The position numbers and the translations under genes are program-made. 48,320 nucleotides of DNA from a virus. Position 1 is the first letter of the stretch. Each line of letters opens with the position of its first letter. Below the pieces are notes generated by a model. The model saw only the letters and a list, made by a program, of their open reading frames with translations. It did not search any database and was not told the origin of the DNA. The stretch covers positions 1 to 48,320 of the IMG/VR virus record IMGVR_UViG_3300004481_000332. The stretch is one strand, 5' to 3'. Positions 3,269-45,130 of this stretch are shown piece by piece.

Positions 3269-3314
3269 AAAAGTATAATAAGTAATCAAAGATGCTCGTT
3301 CTTTAAAATAAAAT

Positions 3315-6034: not shown

Positions 6035-6042
6035 ACGATAAA

Positions 6043-6112
6043 AACCCGAACTTTGTAGTAGCGGGTTCTGGTGGGTTTCTTTAAATTAATAAAGCCGAAC
6101 CCACTACTACAA
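6043..6112 (-). promoter_or_regulatory. Leader structures upstream of 5201..6034: a 16-bp inverted repeat competing with a short hairpin + U-run
   Basis: TTGTAGTAGCGGGTTC (6053-6068) pairs with GAACCCACTACTACAA (6097-6112), one G:U. Alternative stem AACCCG (6043-6048) with CGGGTT (6062-6067) is followed in the minus sense by UUUUU, 8 nt before the ATG at 6034. Confidence 0.5.
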
Positions 6113-6185
6113 AATCCTTATTAATTTATTATGATTAAATAATATCACGTTCTATTGTGTTTGTAAATAGCTCAAAAACAGCATT

Positions 6186-6314
6186 TTTATAATAAAACTA
6201 TATAAAAGACAAATGATCAAATGTTAATAAGTTATTCTTCTGATCTTAAATTGCATCACAAATGAATTAAATGACATTTTTGAAATGCATACATTTATAA
6301 TAAAATACAAATGA
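6186..6314. other. AT-rich repeat region (candidate replication origin and/or extra early promoters)
   Basis: AAATG(A) at 6211, 6219, 6260, 6269, 6283 and 6309. TTTATAATAAAA at 6186-6197 and 6294-6305, the same TATAATAAAA context as the -10 of P1-P3. Confidence 0.35.
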
Positions 6315-6343
6315 TATTATAATACAAACATATTAATTTGTAA

Positions 6344-6391
6344 ACCTGTTAACAACTAGATATTTACAACAACATTTAATCGTGATATAAT
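6344..6391 (+). promoter_or_regulatory. Early promoter P2 with upstream box ACCTGTTAACAACTAG
   Basis: -35 TTTACA at 6363-6368, 17-nt spacer, extended -10 TGaTATAAT (TATAAT at 6386-6391). Confidence 0.75.
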
Positions 6392-6453
6392 AAAAATATA
6401 ATAGGAAAAACGATTTAATATTTACAAATTGAAATAAATGTATCATACTATCT

Positions 6454-6501
6454 ACCTGTTAATAACTTATCCTTTACAAGCGAATTGTTTCGTGATATAA
6501 T
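6454..6501 (+). promoter_or_regulatory. Early promoter P3 with upstream box ACCTGTTAATAACTTA
   Basis: -35 TTTACA at 6473-6478, 17-nt spacer, extended -10 TGaTATAAT (TATAAT at 6496-6501). Confidence 0.8.
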
Positions 6502-6545
6502 AAAAATGAAGTAAATTAATCAAGTGGGTCTAGCACTTTAAAAAT

Positions 6546-12394: not shown

Positions 12395-12526
12395 ATGAGC
12401 AATGCTAAACAAACACTATTAAAAGAAGCAAGAAAACTTAGAGCTAAAGCATATAAGAAAAGAATTGAAGCAGACAGACTCGAAAAAGAGGCAGAAGAAT
12501 TAGAAAAACAAGCATATGAACATAAC
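12395..12526 (+). CDS. Hypothetical small coiled-coil protein (43 aa)
   Basis: Hand translation: MSNAKQTLLKEARKLRAKAYKKRIEADRLEKEAEELEKQAYEHN. Confidence 0.35.
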
Positions 12527-13112
12527 TAATTTCAACAATCTTAAACCAACAAAAGATAGACTCCTCGAGATGTTAGAACTGCAAAAAGAATTGCAAAAGC
12601 TTTATGAGATGCCAGAATCCCTAGATCTTTCGATAGCAAAAGACCAAGATCTTCTCAGATGGTTAGCTTGGTGTGTCACAGAAGAAACAGGAGAAGCAAT
12701 GGAATGCTACAATAATGGTATGGGAGATGAACATCTTCTTGATGAAGTTGCAGACAGCACTCATTTCTTTTTAGAACTAATTAATCTATCCGGATTAAGA
12801 TTGAAGTTCACAAACCAGATCGGGATTTTTGATAGCTTGTATTTGATCTTCACAAAAGATATGAAGAATCCGCTTGAGGCACACTCCGAATTCATTTGTG
12901 CTCTTGCTTTAGCAATCAACGTATTAAAAAATCGAAAATGGAGAAAAATCAATCTTCTGACAAACGAAGATGTCTTTTACAAAAAACTAGAAACAGCAGT
13001 CGAGCTGTTTTTTGTTTTTCTTAAATCATTAAACATAACAGACAATCTTCTGTGGTCAGCATTCACGAGAAAATATCAAGTGAATAAATTCAGGAGAGAA
13101 TCTAACTATTAA
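12516..13112 (+). CDS. All-alpha NTP pyrophosphohydrolase (dimeric dUTPase / T4 gp56 dCTPase-like)
   Basis: TEETGEAMECY, LLDEVADSTHFFLELINL and C-terminal KYQVNKFRRESNY resemble T4 gp56 ELVDIFHFVLNMF and LKNKENFARQDRGY (recalled from memory). Confidence 0.6.
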   Translation: MNITNFNNLKPTKDRLLEMLELQKELQKLYEMPESLDLSIAKDQDLLRWLAWCVTEETGEAMECYNNGMGDEHLLDEVADSTHFFLELINLSGLRLKFTNQIGIFDSLYLIFTKDMKNPLEAHSEFICALALAINVLKNRKWRKINLLTNEDVFYKKLETAVELFFVFLKSLNITDNLLWSAFTRKYQVNKFRRESNY

Positions 13113-13113
13113 T

Positions 13114-13812
13114 ATGAGAATCTTTAAATCGTTCGACGAGATGCACAAAGAACTGACACGAGAGCTAACACATAACGGTTTGATTGTAAATGTTGAAACA
13201 GTTCAGGACAAAGATGTCAAAGGAATGTCTGAATATACAACAAAAGAACTGATCGGATATTCTTTTCTTGTCAGAGACACGTCAAAGAAAAGTGAATGGT
13301 TAAAATCTCTTGGATATAATTTAGATTGGGCAAAAGAAGAATTCGAAGAAAGAGTCAGTCCGTTTCCAATTAATCCAGGACGAGCTTGGGAAAGACGAGA
13401 AAAGGCTTGGAGTGAATTTATTCATAATGGAAAGTTTAGCTATACATATAATGAAAGGATCCGAGAACAACTAAACGAAATTATTGATCTTTTGAACACA
13501 AAACCTCATTCTAGACAAGCAATCATAACAATTTACGATCAACACAGTGATTTAAAGAACGCAGGAGGTCAGCGGAGGATTCCTTGCAGTATGTATTACC
13601 AGTTCTTCATCCGTGAAGGTAAATTACACCTAATTTATAACATAAGAAGCAATGATTTTAAAGAACACTTCCCATATGATGTATGGTTAGCAGCCGAGAT
13701 GCAAAAATATGTTGCTGATAGAAATAGAACTGTTAGCGGTAAATGCGGAGACTTCATTTACTTTTGTGGATCTTTACATACTTTTATGAGAGACTCACAA
13801 GAGATGTTTTAA
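13114..13812 (+). CDS. Thymidylate-synthase-fold pyrimidine C5 transferase, dCMP hydroxymethylase-like
   Basis: SRQAIITIYD and RIPCSMYYQFFIREGKLHLIYNIRSNDFKEHFPYDVW align without gaps to ThyA PCHAFFQF...[16 protein letters not shown]. Asp replaces Asn177. RSND and GSLH match T4 gp42. Confidence 0.8.
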   Translation: MRIFKSFDEMHKELTRELTHNGLIVNVETVQDKDVKGMSEYTTKELIGYSFLVRDTSKKSEWLKSLGYNLDWAKEEFEERVSPFPINPGRAWERREKAWSEFIHNGKFSYTYNERIREQLNEIIDLLNTKPHSRQAIITIYDQHSDLKNAGGQRRIPCSMYYQFFIREGKLHLIYNIRSNDFKEHFPYDVWLAAEMQKYVADRNRTVSGKCGDFIYFCGSLHTFMRDSQEMF

Positions 13813-13818
13813 TATAAA

Positions 13819-13934
13819 AGCGGACCGTGGCTTAAGGTCTATGATCATAACTTGGGAGGGAATATATTTGTCAGCACATTACACTTTATGTGTGAAGCTG
13901 AGTAATCACATAAAATGCCCCCACACGGTCTGCT
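13819..13934 (+). ncRNA. Structured intergenic RNA element (function unknown)
   Basis: 11-bp closing helix AGCGGACCGTG (13819-13829) with CACGGTCTGCT (13924-13934), one G:U. Internal hairpins CACAT/ATGTG and TGTGA/TCACA. It is a 131-nt gap in an otherwise gap-free operon. Confidence 0.35.
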
Positions 13935-13943
13935 TCTATAGAT

Positions 13944-14258
13944 ATGAGAGAAAAAGAAATTCAATATACAATTATTCAATATTTAGAATATCAGAAGAAT
14001 TTATATTTCATTAGAACGAATTCTTTTGCTGGATCATTCTTACGAAGAAACGGTTCTGCTGGATATATTAAAAATAACAAAGCAGGATGTCCAGATATTA
14101 TAGTTTTAAAAAACGGAAGATTCATTGGTCTTGAAGTAAAGACAGACAAAGGAAAACAATCAGATCTTCAAAAAGAAGCAGAAAAACAAATTAAGAATAG
14201 TGGTGGTGAATATTATATTATTAGAAGACTAGAAGACGTTCTTGATATTTTTAAATAA
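13944..14258 (+). CDS. VRR-NUC domain nuclease
   Basis: 104 aa. AGCPDIIVLKNGRFIGLEVKTDKGKQSDLQ matches the GxPD...E-V-K...Q pattern. Confidence 0.75.
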   Translation: MREKEIQYTIIQYLEYQKNLYFIRTNSFAGSFLRRNGSAGYIKNNKAGCPDIIVLKNGRFIGLEVKTDKGKQSDLQKEAEKQIKNSGGEYYIIRRLEDVLDIFK

Positions 14259-14269
14259 TAGTTCTTTAT

Positions 14270-14420
14270 TTCTCGTTCGCTATCCAGGTTAAATCTGCGG
14301 GAGGGGGGCTTTAAATAAAGATGGACTGATTAGAATATGGCTTGTTCCATACAACTCTAATCACATTCAAGCCCGCACGATGTAAATCGCTCCCTTGGGA
14401 GAAACGATAGCGAGCGGGAA
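14270..14420 (+). ncRNA. Structured RNA element (three-way-junction fold) upstream of the high-GC cassette; possible riboregulator
   Basis: 15-bp helix 14270-14284 with 14406-14420 (2 G:U). GCGGG (14297-14301) with CCCGC (14372-14376). Extended hairpin GATTAGA-TATGG...CCATA-TCTAATC (14328-14362). CUCC-CUUG-GGAG tetraloop hairpin (14390-14401). Confidence 0.4.
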
Positions 14421-14468
14421 ATAGGGCGTTATGTGTTCTTTAAAAAGCGAAATTAAAGGAGGTGGCAG

Positions 14469-14738
14469 ATGGCCATTTTAATCGCGCTGTTCTTTTTCTT
14501 CGGTTCTGCGGTTGAGTGGTCGATTGCCACTCTCCGCATCTGGAATATATCCAAGGGACGAACTGGTATCGTAATGCTGATTGTTTTCTGCGAGGAGATG
14601 CTTATGCTCGGCGCAGGAGCTTTGACGGCTTATATCGTTATTAAAACCAATCAGCTTTACCTATTGCCATTTGCGGCAATCGGCGGTTCGTTAGGTGCAG
14701 GATTTTCAATGAAACTTTCTCAAAGGAGGAAAGAATGA
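14469..14738 (+). CDS. Small integral membrane protein (about 3 TM helices; weak resemblance to UPF0316/DUF5698)
   Basis: 89 aa and hydrophobic. AGGAGG lies 6 nt upstream of the ATG. About 48% G+C. Confidence 0.6.
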   Translation: MAILIALFFFFGSAVEWSIATLRIWNISKGRTGIVMLIVFCEEMLMLGAGALTAYIVIKTNQLYLLPFAAIGGSLGAGFSMKLSQRRKE

Positions 14739-15511
14739 TTAAAACGATTCTTTTGCCCGACATTCATTATCCCTATCACAACAAAAAGGCGTGGCTGGTG
14801 GTGTTGAAATTCTTAAGGTGGTTCAAACCGCACACCATTGTTCTGGCGGGGGACGCATTAGAGATGCGCGCTGTGGATCACTGGAAGAGAGAGAAAGGCA
14901 ACCTCAGGCATTTTGAGGGGATACGCTTGCTCCACGACTACGAGCAGTTCATCGAGGATATCCTCGAACCCCTTGAGAAGATTTGCCACAGAGCAAAAAA
15001 GATTTACATGGGGGGCAACCATGAGGTCTTTGCCAACAGGGTCGTTGACCAGAATCCTCAACTTGAGGGGTTGATTGAGCCAGAGAATGCACTCAAGCTC
15101 AAAAAGCGGGGATGGGAATGGATTCCCTATATCGTCAGGGGTAAGCATGGAAGCACCCACAAGGGAATGCTCAAAATCGGCAAGCTGACAGTCATTCATG
15201 GGGAATATACAAATAAATTCCATGCCTCCAAAACGGCTGACTGCTACCTCAAGTCCGTACTCTATTTTCATACCCACGACCTTCAGCTTTTCACCAAAGT
15301 CACGGCAGAAGACCCCTCCGACTATCACACCTGTCAATCCGGCGGCTGCCTTTGCGACAAGAGTCCCCAGTATTTATGGGGAAGACCAAACCGATGGGTT
15401 CATTCCTTTGCCATCCTTTACACGCGCAAAGATGGGCTCTTCAACATCTACACTCCAGTCATCATCAACGGCACCTTCACTTACGCGGGTCGCACCTTTT
15501 CTTGGAAATGA
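14735..15511 (+). CDS. Calcineurin-like metallophosphoesterase
   Basis: Motifs PDIH, AGDALE, GGNHE, IHGE and FHTHD occur in canonical order. ATGA overlap with the membrane-protein gene. 50-60% G+C. Confidence 0.8.
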   Translation: MIKTILLPDIHYPYHNKKAWLVVLKFLRWFKPHTIVLAGDALEMRAVDHWKREKGNLRHFEGIRLLHDYEQFIEDILEPLEKICHRAKKIYMGGNHEVFANRVVDQNPQLEGLIEPENALKLKKRGWEWIPYIVRGKHGSTHKGMLKIGKLTVIHGEYTNKFHASKTADCYLKSVLYFHTHDLQLFTKVTAEDPSDYHTCQSGGCLCDKSPQYLWGRPNRWVHSFAILYTRKDGLFNIYTPVIINGTFTYAGRTFSWK

Positions 15512-15588
15512 ATTTCGCTTCGGCTTCAGTAGTTGTGCCGAAAACAGCTACTATATTTTATGAAAAAAGAAATAACAATTAACTTAAT

Positions 15589-15615
15589 GCGGTTTTCTTA
15601 AATAAGAAAATCCGC
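15589..15615 (+). terminator. Hairpin after the high-GC cassette (weak terminator candidate)
   Basis: GCGGTTTTCTTA pairs with TAAGAAAATCCGC (one bulge). No clear U-run. Confidence 0.3.
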
Positions 15616-15630
15616 TGAAAAGAAACGAAT

Positions 15631-16172: not shown

Positions 16173-16328
16173 ATGGAACGAGAAATAAAATTGTTCTTTT
16201 GTGTTGGTCGGGAATGGGGTAAAAGTAAATTGAGGAATCTTGAATTACTCAATCTCACAAAAAAGCATTGGCAACAGCAAGAGAGCCAAACCTTCACCCG
16301 AACGTTCCCGCCCATCACAAGCGAATAA
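16173..16328 (+). CDS. Hypothetical small protein (51 aa)
   Basis: Hand translation: MEREIKLFFCVGREWGKSKLRNLELLNLTKKHWQQQESQTFTRTFPPITSE. Confidence 0.35.
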   Translation: MEREIKLFFCVGREWGKSKLRNLELLNLTKKHWQQQESQTFTRTFPPITSE

Positions 16329-16354
16329 TTAACCCCAAGTAAAAATAAAAATCT

Positions 16355-20040: not shown

Positions 20041-21141
20041 TTATTTACTAAAGAGCGATTTCAACCAGGACCAGAGGTTGAAAGATTTTCCTGTAGACTC
20101 GGTAATAACTACATTACTGTCTTTTGGAAGCAATAGGATTTCGGCAGCTTCTACTGCGCTATTAAATTCTGCCGGAGACGCAGCAACAATCGGTGTTGTT
20201 TCTGTCCAGACCCATTGCTGATCGATTGGTTTTGCGCCTTCAATCAACGTCTCTTTGTTTACAATGTGTCTTTTTGCTGTCTTTGTCTCGTTAAACGCGT
20301 AAACTTCGTCTGGATCGCTTGGGTCTCTTAAAAGTATATACATGTTTTTTTTTACGCTTGTGTTCGGTAGTCCTGTTATTTCACGGACAATATACCTTAT
20401 GGCGTAATCATAATAATTATAATCGTCAGATAATGACTTCAAGAACGGGTCATAACTATCCATTATCTTCCAGATTGGTTTATCTTCAACAATCGCTATG
20501 GCGTGGTTAATCTGATTCGGCACCCTAAAATAAATTCCATTGTTCTGTCCATTCCAAGCATAGACAGCAGCAGAAAGAGGACTAACTTTAAGTGCTTCGT
20601 TAAAGTCTACTCTATAGACAAGTTCATAGTTTAGAGGAAATCTCTTAATAAATTCAAGTCCCAGAGCAGACATTTGTGGAGTGATCTTAGACTTATCGAA
20701 ATACTCTGTTTCGTTATCCGTCCACGGCAACATCTTTTCAGGAATCAATCCAAGCTTTCGTTTTGCTTCTGCAACGACTTTCAAACTATTTCCGGAATCT
20801 GGCTTTGTATTTGAAATCAACGCATCGAATCTATCGGAGAAATTAATATGTCCGGTGTCATCTATATATCCATTGTCATTTAACCAAGAGAGGTTCCCAA
20901 CAGACATCAATTTTAATTCAATCAAGCGTGTCATTAAGATTTCAACGTCAGTGCAAGATGCAAAGTTCGTGCAACACATACTTTCAAATCCTTGTCGTTG
21001 TTTTTCATTCTTTGGTAAAAACGGAATCCAGTTTCCGTCTGGAACTTTAATCTCATTGTCAATTGCAGAGACTCCAAAGATATAGTCTTTCTCGACAATT
21101 GGTTCTAATATAACTCCTGATCTAATTGGTTTATTTTCCAT
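20041..21141 (-). CDS. Papain-like cysteine peptidase domain protein (possible second lysin)
   Basis: QRQGFESMCCTNFAS (Gln...Cys), INHAIAIVE (His) and KIMDSYD (Asn/Asp) occur in papain order. Weak, by-eye call. Confidence 0.4.
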   Translation of the reverse strand: MENKPIRSGVILEPIVEKDYIFGVSAIDNEIKVPDGNWIPFLPKNEKQRQGFESMCCTNFASCTDVEILMTRLIELKLMSVGNLSWLNDNGYIDDTGHINFSDRFDALISNTKPDSGNSLKVVAEAKRKLGLIPEKMLPWTDNETEYFDKSKITPQMSALGLEFIKRFPLNYELVYRVDFNEALKVSPLSAAVYAWNGQNNGIYFRVPNQINHAIAIVEDKPIWKIMDSYDPFLKSLSDDYNYYDYAIRYIVREITGLPNTSVKKNMYILLRDPSDPDEVYAFNETKTAKRHIVNKETLIEGAKPIDQQWVWTETTPIVAASPAEFNSAVEAAEILLLPKDSNVVITESTGKSFNLWSWLKSLFSK

Positions 21142-21167
21142 AAAATTGTATTTACTAATAAAATTTG

Positions 21168-21225
21168 GAGGAGGGAGTTTGACAACGGTTGAGGTTGCCC
21201 CCGTTTTTGGGATAGCTCCCTCCTC
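21168..21225 (-). terminator. Compound hairpin + U-run after the 59-aa high-GC ORF
   Basis: Perfect 10-bp stem GAGGAGGGAG/CTCCCTCCTC with inner stem AACGG/CCGTT, followed in the minus sense by CAAAUUUUAUU. Confidence 0.5.
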
Positions 21226-21248
21226 AGTGAGTTCGAGAAGTTCTTTGT

Positions 21249-21428
21249 TCAGGTCTCCACAAAGAAGTCGACCCAGATGATGCGAGTTCCTTCCTTGTTG
21301 TAGCCGAACCTAATGATCGGCTCCTTCTCTCTGGTGCGCCGGACAATCCCCTCGACGTCCTTGATCAGGCGCAGAAATTCTTTAATCGGCTCATCCTTGC
21401 CTCTCATTAAAGAACATACGCTTTGCAC
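21249..21428 (-). CDS. Hypothetical 59-aa protein on a high-GC insert (moron)
   Basis: AGGAGG (21434-21439) lies 5 nt before GTG 21428. Hand translation: VQSVCSLMRGKDEPIKEFLRLIKDVEGIVRRTREKEPIIRFGYNKEGTRIIWVDFFVET. About 60% G+C. One codon short of the ORF-track cutoff. Confidence 0.55.
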   Translation of the reverse strand: MQSVCSLMRGKDEPIKEFLRLIKDVEGIVRRTREKEPIIRFGYNKEGTRIIWVDFFVET

Positions 21429-21440
21429 TTAAACCTCCTT

Positions 21441-43279: not shown

Positions 43280-43474
43280 GTTATTATTCGCCGTCTAAAG
43301 TCCACCTCCTTCCTACACTCGTTTGTTGGAAACAAGTGATAACTTTAGCTAACGAATCTAATTTTAATTATTATTCCGACCTTTATCAACTCTTACGAGC
43401 TTACTTCCGGTGGCGAATTACTTCACCACCAGTCAAAGCCCACAAGGATGGGAAATTATAAAGACTTCGCTCGA

Positions 43475-45058: not shown

Positions 45059-45130
45059 TTGCAGGGGCTGGAGTCGAACCAGCTGCCTCGAGGTCATGAA
45101 CCTCGCGAGATACCGATTCTCTACCCTGCG
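45059..45130 (-). tRNA. tRNA-Met (anticodon CAU) with bacterial initiator features
   Basis: Hand-folded cloverleaf of CGCAGGG-UA-GAGA-AUCGGUA-UCUC-G-CGAGG-UUCAUGA-CCUCG-AGGCA-GCUGG-UUCGACU-CCAGC-CCCUGCA-A. It has a C1:A72 mismatch, A11:U24, G30:C40 and G31:C39. It aligns position by position with E. coli tRNA-fMet. CCA is not encoded. Confidence 0.9.

Follow-up and report, generated by a model that had tools for sequence, protein, structure and literature searches.

Introduction

Morons, a concept of Juhala and Hendrix, are extra phage genes of deviant composition that bring their own promoter and terminator and lie between conserved genes, and in the hyperplastic regions of T4-type phages modular gene shuffling is mediated by promoter-early stem-loops (PeSLs). 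Among phage metallophosphoesterases (MPEs), Gp48 of the cluster-A mycobacteriophage A10ZJ24 is reported, in a 2025 paper (PMC12287305), to be a toxic, early-expressed phosphodiesterase and DNase that breaks down the genomic DNA of the host and that the phage requires against the defences of M. tuberculosis. Here we analysed 48,320 nt of viral DNA (IMG/VR record IMGVR_UViG_3300004481_000332; this whole stretch is called the window below, and its gene statistics come from a simple map of 58 open reading frames (ORFs)), in which an MPE gene and a small membrane-protein gene form a cassette behind a conserved structured RNA. A preliminary description of this DNA, made from the sequence alone, had taken the pair for a recently acquired foreign cassette. 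We propose that positions 14255-15562 would constitute a moron-like mobile accessory operon in a hyperplastic interval between a thymidylate synthase (TS)-like gene and polB; that the cassette is a mobile accessory one we consider very probable. Its parts are, in order, the structured RNA, a GTTCTTTAAAA/AGCGAA leader with a strong Shine-Dalgarno (SD) sequence, a gene for a DUF5698-like protein with three transmembrane (TM) segments, the translationally coupled MPE gene and a terminator-like hairpin.

The window MPE belongs to the same PHROG as the cluster-A enzymes A10ZJ24 Gp48 and Bluefalcon gp47, aligns end to end with gp47, is of similar size (about 256 aa), carries the same five MPE motifs and, like them, is encoded in an early region of replication and nucleotide-metabolism genes. 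However, identity is about 27%, the window context is AT-rich and SD-less whereas the actinophages are GC-rich, and the window gene comes coupled with two partners, a DUF5698-like gene and a structured RNA, for which no counterpart is annotated beside gp47. DNase activity is reported for A10ZJ24 Gp48; in the window clade such a role would follow by analogy. The membrane protein, for its part, resembles UPF0316/YebE in that members of its family match PF18955 and share a small multi-TM architecture, but these proteins are rare and stand alone at 83-100 aa, without the C-terminal DUF2179 domain.

As with morons, the cassette is present or absent between relatives (a test that rests on one relative, the contig L004; L numbers denote the loci compared), deviates in composition, has its own leader and a terminator-like hairpin, and sits between conserved genes. 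Unlike morons, it comes with no evidence of a temperate window phage or of prophage expression, it includes a conserved RNA and foreign-type translation signals, and it recurs in many phages and cellular genomes. The T4 PeSL regions offer a further parallel, since here too small accessory genes are split by stable hairpins or structured spacers beside a short repeated motif, with boundaries at that motif, and in L010 a hairpin of the same sequence type as the closing helix (P1) of the window RNA is found. In contrast to PeSLs, the window motif is a candidate signal and not an established promoter, and the RNA exceeds a simple stem-loop, for which its conserved, covarying interior of several helices would be superfluous.

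Presence, absence and spread of the cassette

In the window, the interval between the TS-like gene and polB measures 3.2 kb and holds a VRR-NUC gene, the TM gene, the MPE gene, a gene for a 168-aa protein and three small genes. The sole syntenic relative found, the 47-kb IMG/VR contig L004, shares the dUTPase-like gene, the TS-like gene (71% identity), polB (41% identity) and others. Its order is dUTPase-like, 54 aa, TS-like, 91 aa, polB, without the VRR-NUC, TM and MPE genes. A blastn search of INPHARED returned no close phage relatives, and IMG/VR queries with polB and the downstream 168-aa protein found nothing. Homologous TM-MPE cassettes lie in unrelated phage backbones (L010, L016, L002, L059, L013 and L150) and in two cellular contigs (L065 and L138). 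By iteration of hidden Markov models (HMMs), a TM homologue was placed directly 5' of the MPE gene in the window, L010, L001, L016, L013, L002, L059 and L065, and later in L150/L151. The earlier suggestion of an accessory, moron-like cassette is supported by its absence between TS-like gene and polB in the single syntenic relative, by these homologous cassettes in unrelated phages and cellular contigs, and by the terminator-like hairpin that follows the MPE gene.

The closest cassette lies in an unrelated 43.6-kb contig, L010, where the TM gene (89% aa and 84% nt identity to the window), a 47-aa coiled-coil ORF and the MPE gene (84% aa, 74% nt) are followed by a HAD-like gene. The coiled-coil ORF occupies the ATGA junction in L010 and L001 and is absent from the window, whose MPE starts at the same junction. 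Parts of the cassette reassort, since L001 joins the same TM gene (88% identical) to a divergent, long-form MPE that is only 59% identical. In a neighbour-joining tree of 56 MPEs, the TM-bearing loci form one subclade except L013, which is placed elsewhere. A T-arm-like string had raised the possibility of a tRNA gene 5' of the TM gene in L013; ARAGORN finds none there.

Of the cellular carriers, L065 (110 kb) has the cassette beside rplJ/rplL, tsf and rpsB, and L138, a Parcubacteria metagenome-assembled genome (MAG), has an SD-led MPE island that comes after polA and a 445-aa gene, with ftsW and murG beyond it. A bacterial donor was considered and rejected: among 185,579 species genomes scanned, the only match was in a Parcubacteria MAG, so the MPE family is essentially viral. 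We propose that recombination at the leader motif or the hairpin would carry the cassette from phage to phage and, now and then, into cellular chromosomes.

Composition and translation signals

The G+C content is 0.472 over 14501-15000 and 0.498 over 15001-15500, against 0.31-0.35 in the flanking 500-nt segments, and the 1-kb segment of highest G+C in the whole 48 kb starts at 14501 (0.485). The TM gene has a GC of 0.452 and a third-position GC (GC3) of 0.489, and the MPE gene 0.489 and 0.625, whereas the 30 other early-region genes average a GC3 of 0.283 (sd 0.073, maximum 0.379). Relative to all other window genes, the GC3 z-scores are 3.6 (MPE) and 2.0 (TM), with both G3 and C3 elevated. 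Late genes, highly expressed structural genes included, reach a similar total GC through amino-acid content, yet their GC3 is only about 0.25-0.34. The GC island first noticed in counts of 60-nt lines is thus a genome-wide outlier; of those counts, 29, 36 and 15 (the VRR-NUC line) are correct and 32 is really 31.

An AGGAGG at 14457-14462 lies 6 nt 5' of the TM start codon (ATG 14469), and the MPE start codon is also preceded by AGGAGG, a second SD. Even a 4-mer SD core (GGAG, GAGG or AGGA at -20 to -4) is found before 0 of the 56 other genes, leaving the cassette pair as the only 2 of 58, a contrast sharper than had been claimed. The two long shadow ORFs that had already been read as by-products of the GC jump do exist, an antisense one of 159 aa (14858..15337, - strand), which is not a gene, and one on the + strand (15198..15563), and they are indeed by-products. 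The longest antisense open run over this gene (171 codons) is of the length seen in synonymous-codon shuffles (mean 132; p=0.16). An overlapping antisense gene as the source of the high GC was rejected on the same shuffles, and 17 homologues show no consistent excess.

The anomaly extends well beyond the window. MPE GC3 reaches 0.44-0.73 in the TM-bearing subclade of MPEs (62-84% aa identity), as well as in its sister group, inside flanks of GC 0.33-0.39; the backbones in these groups are SD-less (0-1 strong SD among 6-25 genes), whereas the cassette genes carry AGGAGG. The same contrast between an SD-led cassette and an SD-less backbone is seen in L010, L016, L059, L062, L012, L145 and L149. 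Another MPE clade has backbones that use SD, and there MPE GC3 agrees with them; in L075-L077, MPE copies in SD-less phages are fully naturalised. High GC with SD is a conserved property of the whole cassette clade in SD-less, low-GC phages and two cellular contigs. Synonymous third positions that differ between the window and L010 are skewed, with 69 sites G/C in the window and A/T in L010 and 26 the opposite way, so GC3 drifts. Of the earlier reading as a recently acquired foreign cassette, 'foreign' is well supported; 'recent' is unproven, given a clade-wide anomaly and no GC-rich donor among the sampled loci. Alternatives to recent import are repeated import from an unsampled, SD-using and GC-richer pool, continual transfer, or selection.

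Selection would fit a long-resident gene pair whose GC3 and SD are maintained, for example by a special translation regime in an SD-less host, with the absence from L004 being a loss. An anomaly common to the whole subclade in low-GC, SD-less contexts, the lack of a sampled GC-rich reservoir and a ribosome-binding site (RBS) kept at the nucleotide level would all agree with this. Nevertheless, the cassette-bearing backbones are mutually unrelated and the cassettes mosaic, GC3 is not constant, as the skew between window and L010 illustrates, and the highly expressed structural genes of this phage have low GC3 (0.25-0.34); we regard long residence as very unlikely. Continual transfer would also be the outcome if the cassette were a selfish element, driven by an MPE that cuts DNA and spreading into genomes without the cassette in a homing-like manner, and it would account for the lack of amelioration of composition and SD. 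The patchy spread over unrelated backbones and two cellular genomes, boundaries at a short shared motif, composition that stays anomalous over a clade diverged 30-40% in protein sequence and the DNase activity reported for the family (PMC12287305) speak for such an element. However, the search for a target-site pattern, for defined ends other than the leader motif and for a sequence-specific nuclease domain found none of these, circulation only among AT-rich genomes should make the element AT-rich, and some clade members (L075-L077) are fully naturalised. We think this reading very improbable indeed, and retain a mobile accessory cassette that would keep SD-dependent translation signals where other genes are SD-less.

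The phage itself makes essentially no use of SD, its leaders being A/T-rich (for example ttaattaaaaaaacATG), and cellular genes of L138 and L065, both cassette carriers, have leaders in the same style. This SD-poor style hints at a Patescibacteria-like or other SD-poor host; terminase and capsid searches gave no host indication.

Elsewhere in the window, a candidate SD-led, GC-rich mini-gene occupies 21249-21430 on the - strand and would encode about 59 aa if the GTG at 21427 is its start, with AAGGAGG 5 nt upstream. Its GC is 0.52 and its GC3, 0.74, the highest in the window; GTTCTTTA lies within its 5' end, and it is followed at 21142-21248 by a strong hairpin (GAGGAGGGAG/CTCCCTCCTC, z -4.5). 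It looks like another SD-bearing cassette of the same kind.

Leader motif and cassette ends

The motif GTTCTTTAAAA (14435..14445, +) abuts the 3' end of the structured RNA and is followed by the cassette leader (14446..14468, +), which comprises AGCGAAATT, the AGGAGG and the spacer TGGCAG. DNA homology between the window and L010 spans AGCGAAATT (about 14446) to just beyond the MPE stop (about 15520), and homology to L001 likewise begins at AGCGAAATT; across the TM family the RBS AGGAGGTGGCnA-ATG is kept at the nucleotide level. At the other end, an intrinsic-terminator-like hairpin (15528-15552) with a T-rich tail (together 15528..15562, +) was identified by a terminator scan 17 nt past the MPE stop, in a region (15512-15630) that folds with z -3.7 to -5.2.

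In the window the motif is enriched, with 14 matches at up to one mismatch against 4.0 expected. It also precedes native SD-less genes (window 3298 and 3602; L010 7738), and its positions in the preliminary description were correct, at 14435-14445 and, as CGTTCTTTAAAA, at 3297 and 3601, where ATG follows 3-7 nt later. That description had concluded that the cassette was grafted onto a native phage leader, which the wider comparison does not support. GTTCTTTAAAA, then (A)GCGAA and AGGAGG, stands 5' of the first cassette gene in L016, L059, L060, L062, L063, L064, L094, L085, L120 and L145, whose backbones have almost nothing in common with the window, so the leader moves with the cassette. Since about ten independent loci have it ahead of their first cassette gene, GTTCTTTAAAA is a signal common to this phage group that is either part of the cassette or marks its recombination joint. 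No match to a sigma-70-like promoter was found at the leader motif.

A conserved structured RNA precedes the cassette

The spacer between the VRR-NUC and TM genes is 210 nt long and folds strongly (z about -4). Strong folding is common to many intergenic regions of this phage, so a low z-score alone is not distinctive, and structured spacers as a special mark of this locus were discarded. What sets the spacer apart is conservation. Comparison and folding delimit an RNA of about 180 nt at 14255..14435 (+), directly 5' of the cassette, with a closing helix P1 of about 22 bp, three inner helices and an additional hairpin (minimum free energy -69 kcal/mol, z -3.9 to -4.4). Homologues were detected by nhmmer 5' of the TM genes of L059 (2-126) and L002 (7190-7292). 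When the window and L002 copies were aligned with MAFFT and folded with RNAalifold, 47 pairs were obtained, 16 of them compensatory and 0 broken, and the L002 copy itself folds with z -6.0. A covariance model, R1, matched L016 2984-3148 (E 1e-10) and L059 1-113 (E 2e-9), with no other significant match across 484 kb plus 66 kb of related loci. In the resulting four-sequence alignment, which was fitted to the covariance model, 96.7% of cells are paired and 25 of 47 pairs have changes on both sides. None of 500 shuffles scored as high, and slid partners gave 39-49% paired. The RNA is assigned to the + (gene) strand because G-U pairs are frequent.

Rfam 15 yielded nothing at gathering score in the window, and none at E<=10 for window 14240-14480 or L002 7100-7560; an IMG/VR pattern scan for further copies gave 5 matches, all chance hits within coding DNA. 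All four copies (window, L002, L016 and L059) lie 5' of TM-MPE, with an additional small membrane or SLT-like gene in between in L002 and L016. By sequence comparison, this RNA is an undescribed, cassette-associated conserved structure, one that the preliminary description missed, and its probable role is to regulate a toxic operon in cis or to insulate it. The hairpin in L010 has the P1 type without the interior, which suggests that the element arose from a common phage hairpin.

Other explanations of this region were tried and rejected. A coding role fails because the ORF that is open in L002 has only two codons before its stop in the window. The RNA and the intergenic region at 13813-13943 do not come out as paralogues in an alignment or with nhmmer. 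A miniature inverted-repeat transposable element with a target-site duplication (GTTCTTTA at 14261 and 14435) does not hold either, given that the 5' copy lies within P1 and covaries in the homologues and that the spacing is asymmetric.

Several further features were noted around the RNA. A perfect 14-nt inverted repeat (TTTATTTCTCGTTC / GAACGAGAAATAAA, at 14265-14278 / 16176-16189) brackets the segment from the RNA through the TM, MPE and 168-aa genes. Each copy adjoins a GTTCTTT motif, and the right copy with ATT-GTTCTTTT resembles the P1 3' arm plus leader motif, possibly as the scar of a recombination event. A further structured intergenic element that is conserved lies at 16175-16340 (+), with a long closing helix (AATTGTTCTTTTGTGTTGGTCGGGAATGGGG ... 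CCCGAACGTTCCCGCCCATCACAAGCGAATAATT) and a variable interior. It has homologues near cassettes in L012 (3745-3880) and L059 (2935-3060), 29 RNAalifold pairs of which 6 are compensatory, and no Rfam match at gathering score. The spacer at 13813-13943 (+), between the TS-like and VRR-NUC genes, has a long hairpin-closed fold (-43 kcal/mol, z -4.2 to -4.8) and no homologue among the fetched loci. Strong folding was also seen in an AT-rich 511-nt spacer at 6035-6545 (GC 0.24; z -3.9 on the + strand, -5.6 on the other) and on the - strand of a 195-nt spacer at 43280-43474 (z -5.9).

The metallophosphoesterase

The second cassette gene (14735..15511, +) encodes a calcineurin-like MPE of 258 aa whose start overlaps the TM stop (ATGA). 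The two protein lengths, the five motifs and the overlap are as first described. The protein matches phrog_221, 'metallo-phosphoesterase', over residues 4-256 (E 8.9e-27) and falls just short of the Pfam Metallophos cut-off (PF00149; 20.2 against 21.5 bits, E 8.5e-4); several homologues have precomputed PF00149/PF12850 hits. Its motifs are D9-I-H11, G39-D40-A-L-E43, G94-N95-H96-E97, H155-G156 and H179-T-H181-D182. In 29 homologues D9, H11, G39, D40, G94, N95, H96, H155, G156, H179 and H181 are invariant, and E97 and D182 nearly so. A sequence-profile search of the PDB gave no MPE match. With an AlphaFold2 model (pLDDT 79.9, pTM 0.82), however, the top 50 Foldseek hits in the PDB are all MPEs, among them SbcD, Mre11, GpdQ, Vps29, SapH, LpxH and Rv0805, at TM-scores of 0.3-0.5.

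Among isolated phages, tblastn retrieved 273 records at 26-28% identity over the full length, mostly 'metallophosphoesterase' genes of Mycobacterium and Streptomyces phages, with 99% query coverage in 181 Mycobacterium phage records. Alignment of the window family with mycobacteriophage Bluefalcon gp47 by hhalign was end to end (98.8% probability, E 4e-17), and gp47 itself belongs to phrog_221 (E 5e-114). The preliminary description had listed nucleotides, cyclic-nucleotide signals and phosphoproteins as possible targets, a reasonable list; the closest characterised homologue points to a DNase/phosphodiesterase directed against the host. By analogy with Gp48, that the window MPE is a host-DNA nuclease is a serious possibility, if one that falls somewhat short of an even chance.

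Alternatively, the MPE could be a small-molecule phosphodiesterase, acting as an anti-signalling or nucleotide-pool enzyme. Its substrates could then be Ap4A, 2',3'-cyclic phosphates, compounds related to dNMPs, or cyclic (oligo)nucleotides that signal in defence. At other loci its recurring neighbours are nucleotide-handling genes (HAD-like, DUF4406 and DUF6899), and it would cooperate there with the HAD-like phosphatase and the DUF4406 N-glycosidase-like protein; the neighbours in the window are nucleotide-metabolism genes. The Foldseek E-values of Rv0805 (a cNMP phosphodiesterase), SapH (an Ap4A hydrolase) and GpdQ are similar to those of SbcD/Mre11. On the other hand, DNase activity is what has been reported for the nearest characterised member of the family (PMC12287305), neither a HAD-like nor a DUF4406 gene lies beside the window cassette, and PADLOC profiles for defence and counter-defence gave no match to the MPE or the TM protein at E<=0.1. 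We consider a small-molecule substrate unlikely. Nucleotide-handling neighbours at other loci also fit nucleic-acid breakdown and salvage.

The DUF5698-like membrane protein

The first gene (14469..14738, +) encodes an 89-aa membrane protein that ORF, hydropathy and family profile identify as a three-TM protein resembling DUF5698, the N-terminal part of UPF0316; its three hydrophobic segments are followed by a short basic C-terminus. The window protein itself has no Pfam match and only a weak NCBIfam match (PRK04164, E 8e-4), but of six members of its family, 5 match PF18955 (E 3.6e-7 to 8e-4), one of these scoring above the cut-off, and most of 27 hits of the TM profile carry precomputed PF18955, some being called YebE/UPF0316 by JGI. 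Stand-alone members are rare: 5 representatives (E<=1e-3) turned up among 1.84 billion.

A protein of this kind could define a membrane or envelope cassette, in which the DUF5698-like protein would serve as a membrane effector, holin-like or otherwise, while the MPE would have a membrane-associated substrate, as LpxH does, or be tethered by its TM partner. The three TM segments and basic C-terminus would suit such a role. TM homologues lie beside an M23 peptidase in L145-L148 or near SLT-domain proteins in L016 and L150, LpxH is among the Foldseek hits, and in L149 a TM gene is paired with a different MPE-like protein, hinting at a functional TM-MPE link. Yet similarity to LpxH is no better than to other MPEs, DUF5698 has no known lysis function, and the window cassette sits among, and would be transcribed with, replication and nucleotide genes, apart from the putative endolysin gene (20041-21141, - strand). 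We judge this reading quite improbable; for the window, an operon centred on a nuclease-like MPE is preferred.

Some of these loci merit description in their own right. In L145-L148, DUF5698-like genes occur in SD-led small-gene cassettes beside an SD-less M23 peptidase gene. In L016 and L150 the SLT-domain proteins are encoded upstream of the TM gene, a possible lysis or envelope link. In L149 (1233-2024) the TM homologue is followed by a 263-aa MPE-like protein (GDMHYG ... GMGDYIE) that the family HMM does not detect; it may be a non-orthologous replacement, which would favour a functional TM-MPE link.

A proposed role for the cassette

In the mechanism that we propose, the MPE would be a binuclear-metal phosphodiesterase that acts early on host nucleic acid as a DNase/phosphodiesterase, in analogy with A10ZJ24 Gp48, shutting down host and defence gene expression and releasing nucleotides. 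Base-modification genes just 5' of the cassette (dUTPase/MazG-like and TS-like) may protect the phage's own DNA. Expression of the toxic MPE would probably be insulated or gated by the RNA ahead of it, and the TM protein may be a membrane partner of the MPE or an independent small membrane effector. At 12516-13812 are a dUTPase_2/MazG-like gene and a short TS-like gene (232 aa), and L004 (4567-6699) also has a dNMP-kinase-like gene, a set whose sequences suggest a modified pyrimidine in phage DNA. The sole tRNA gene in the window is a tRNA-Met (CAT) at 45059-45130 (-).

A number of observations weigh against this scheme. The characterised mycobacteriophage MPEs are only about 27% identical, so the window enzyme may have another activity or substrate; two other cluster-A homologues failed to replace gp48 (PMC12287305). 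Foldseek favours no nuclease subfamily, all the MPEs listed above scoring alike. The TM-MPE coupling is not obligatory, because the TM genes beside the M23 peptidase in L145-L148 have no MPE partner, and the RNA is found in only 4 of about 13 TM-bearing loci. GC-rich flanks occur at 0 loci of the >50%-identity clade, so that no GC-rich donor is among those sampled, and the promoter, the timing and the role of the RNA are ones that we infer. Taken whole, as a mobile operon with RNA gating and an MPE directed against host nucleic acid, we hold the proposal to be evenly balanced between right and wrong. A bolder version can also be envisaged. RNA, DUF5698-like gene and MPE would form an autonomous module that circulates between SD-less phages and possibly Patescibacteria-like hosts and actively retains translation by SD, the RNA would be a new ligand- or state-sensing riboregulator gating an MPE that degrades host DNA or defence signals, and SD and RNA together would provide an expression channel orthogonal to that of the other genes. 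We think this version decidedly unlikely.

Conclusions

The MPE family, the moron concept and, through the 2025 precedent (PMC12287305), the probable role of the enzyme were already known. New are the recurrent coupling of DUF5698-like and MPE genes, SD and high GC that persist in genomes otherwise SD-less, cellular ones included, and the structured RNA. An MPE family tied to host-DNA destruction and defence evasion thus reaches beyond actinophages, as a mobile cassette in uncultivated SD-less phages, and the poorly described DUF5698 family gains a recurring genomic partner. As a covariation-supported structure associated with a phage gene that is probably toxic, the RNA is a candidate for a new cis-regulator. 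In keeping its foreign signals and composition, the cassette is a natural test of SD-led genes in hosts that ignore SD.

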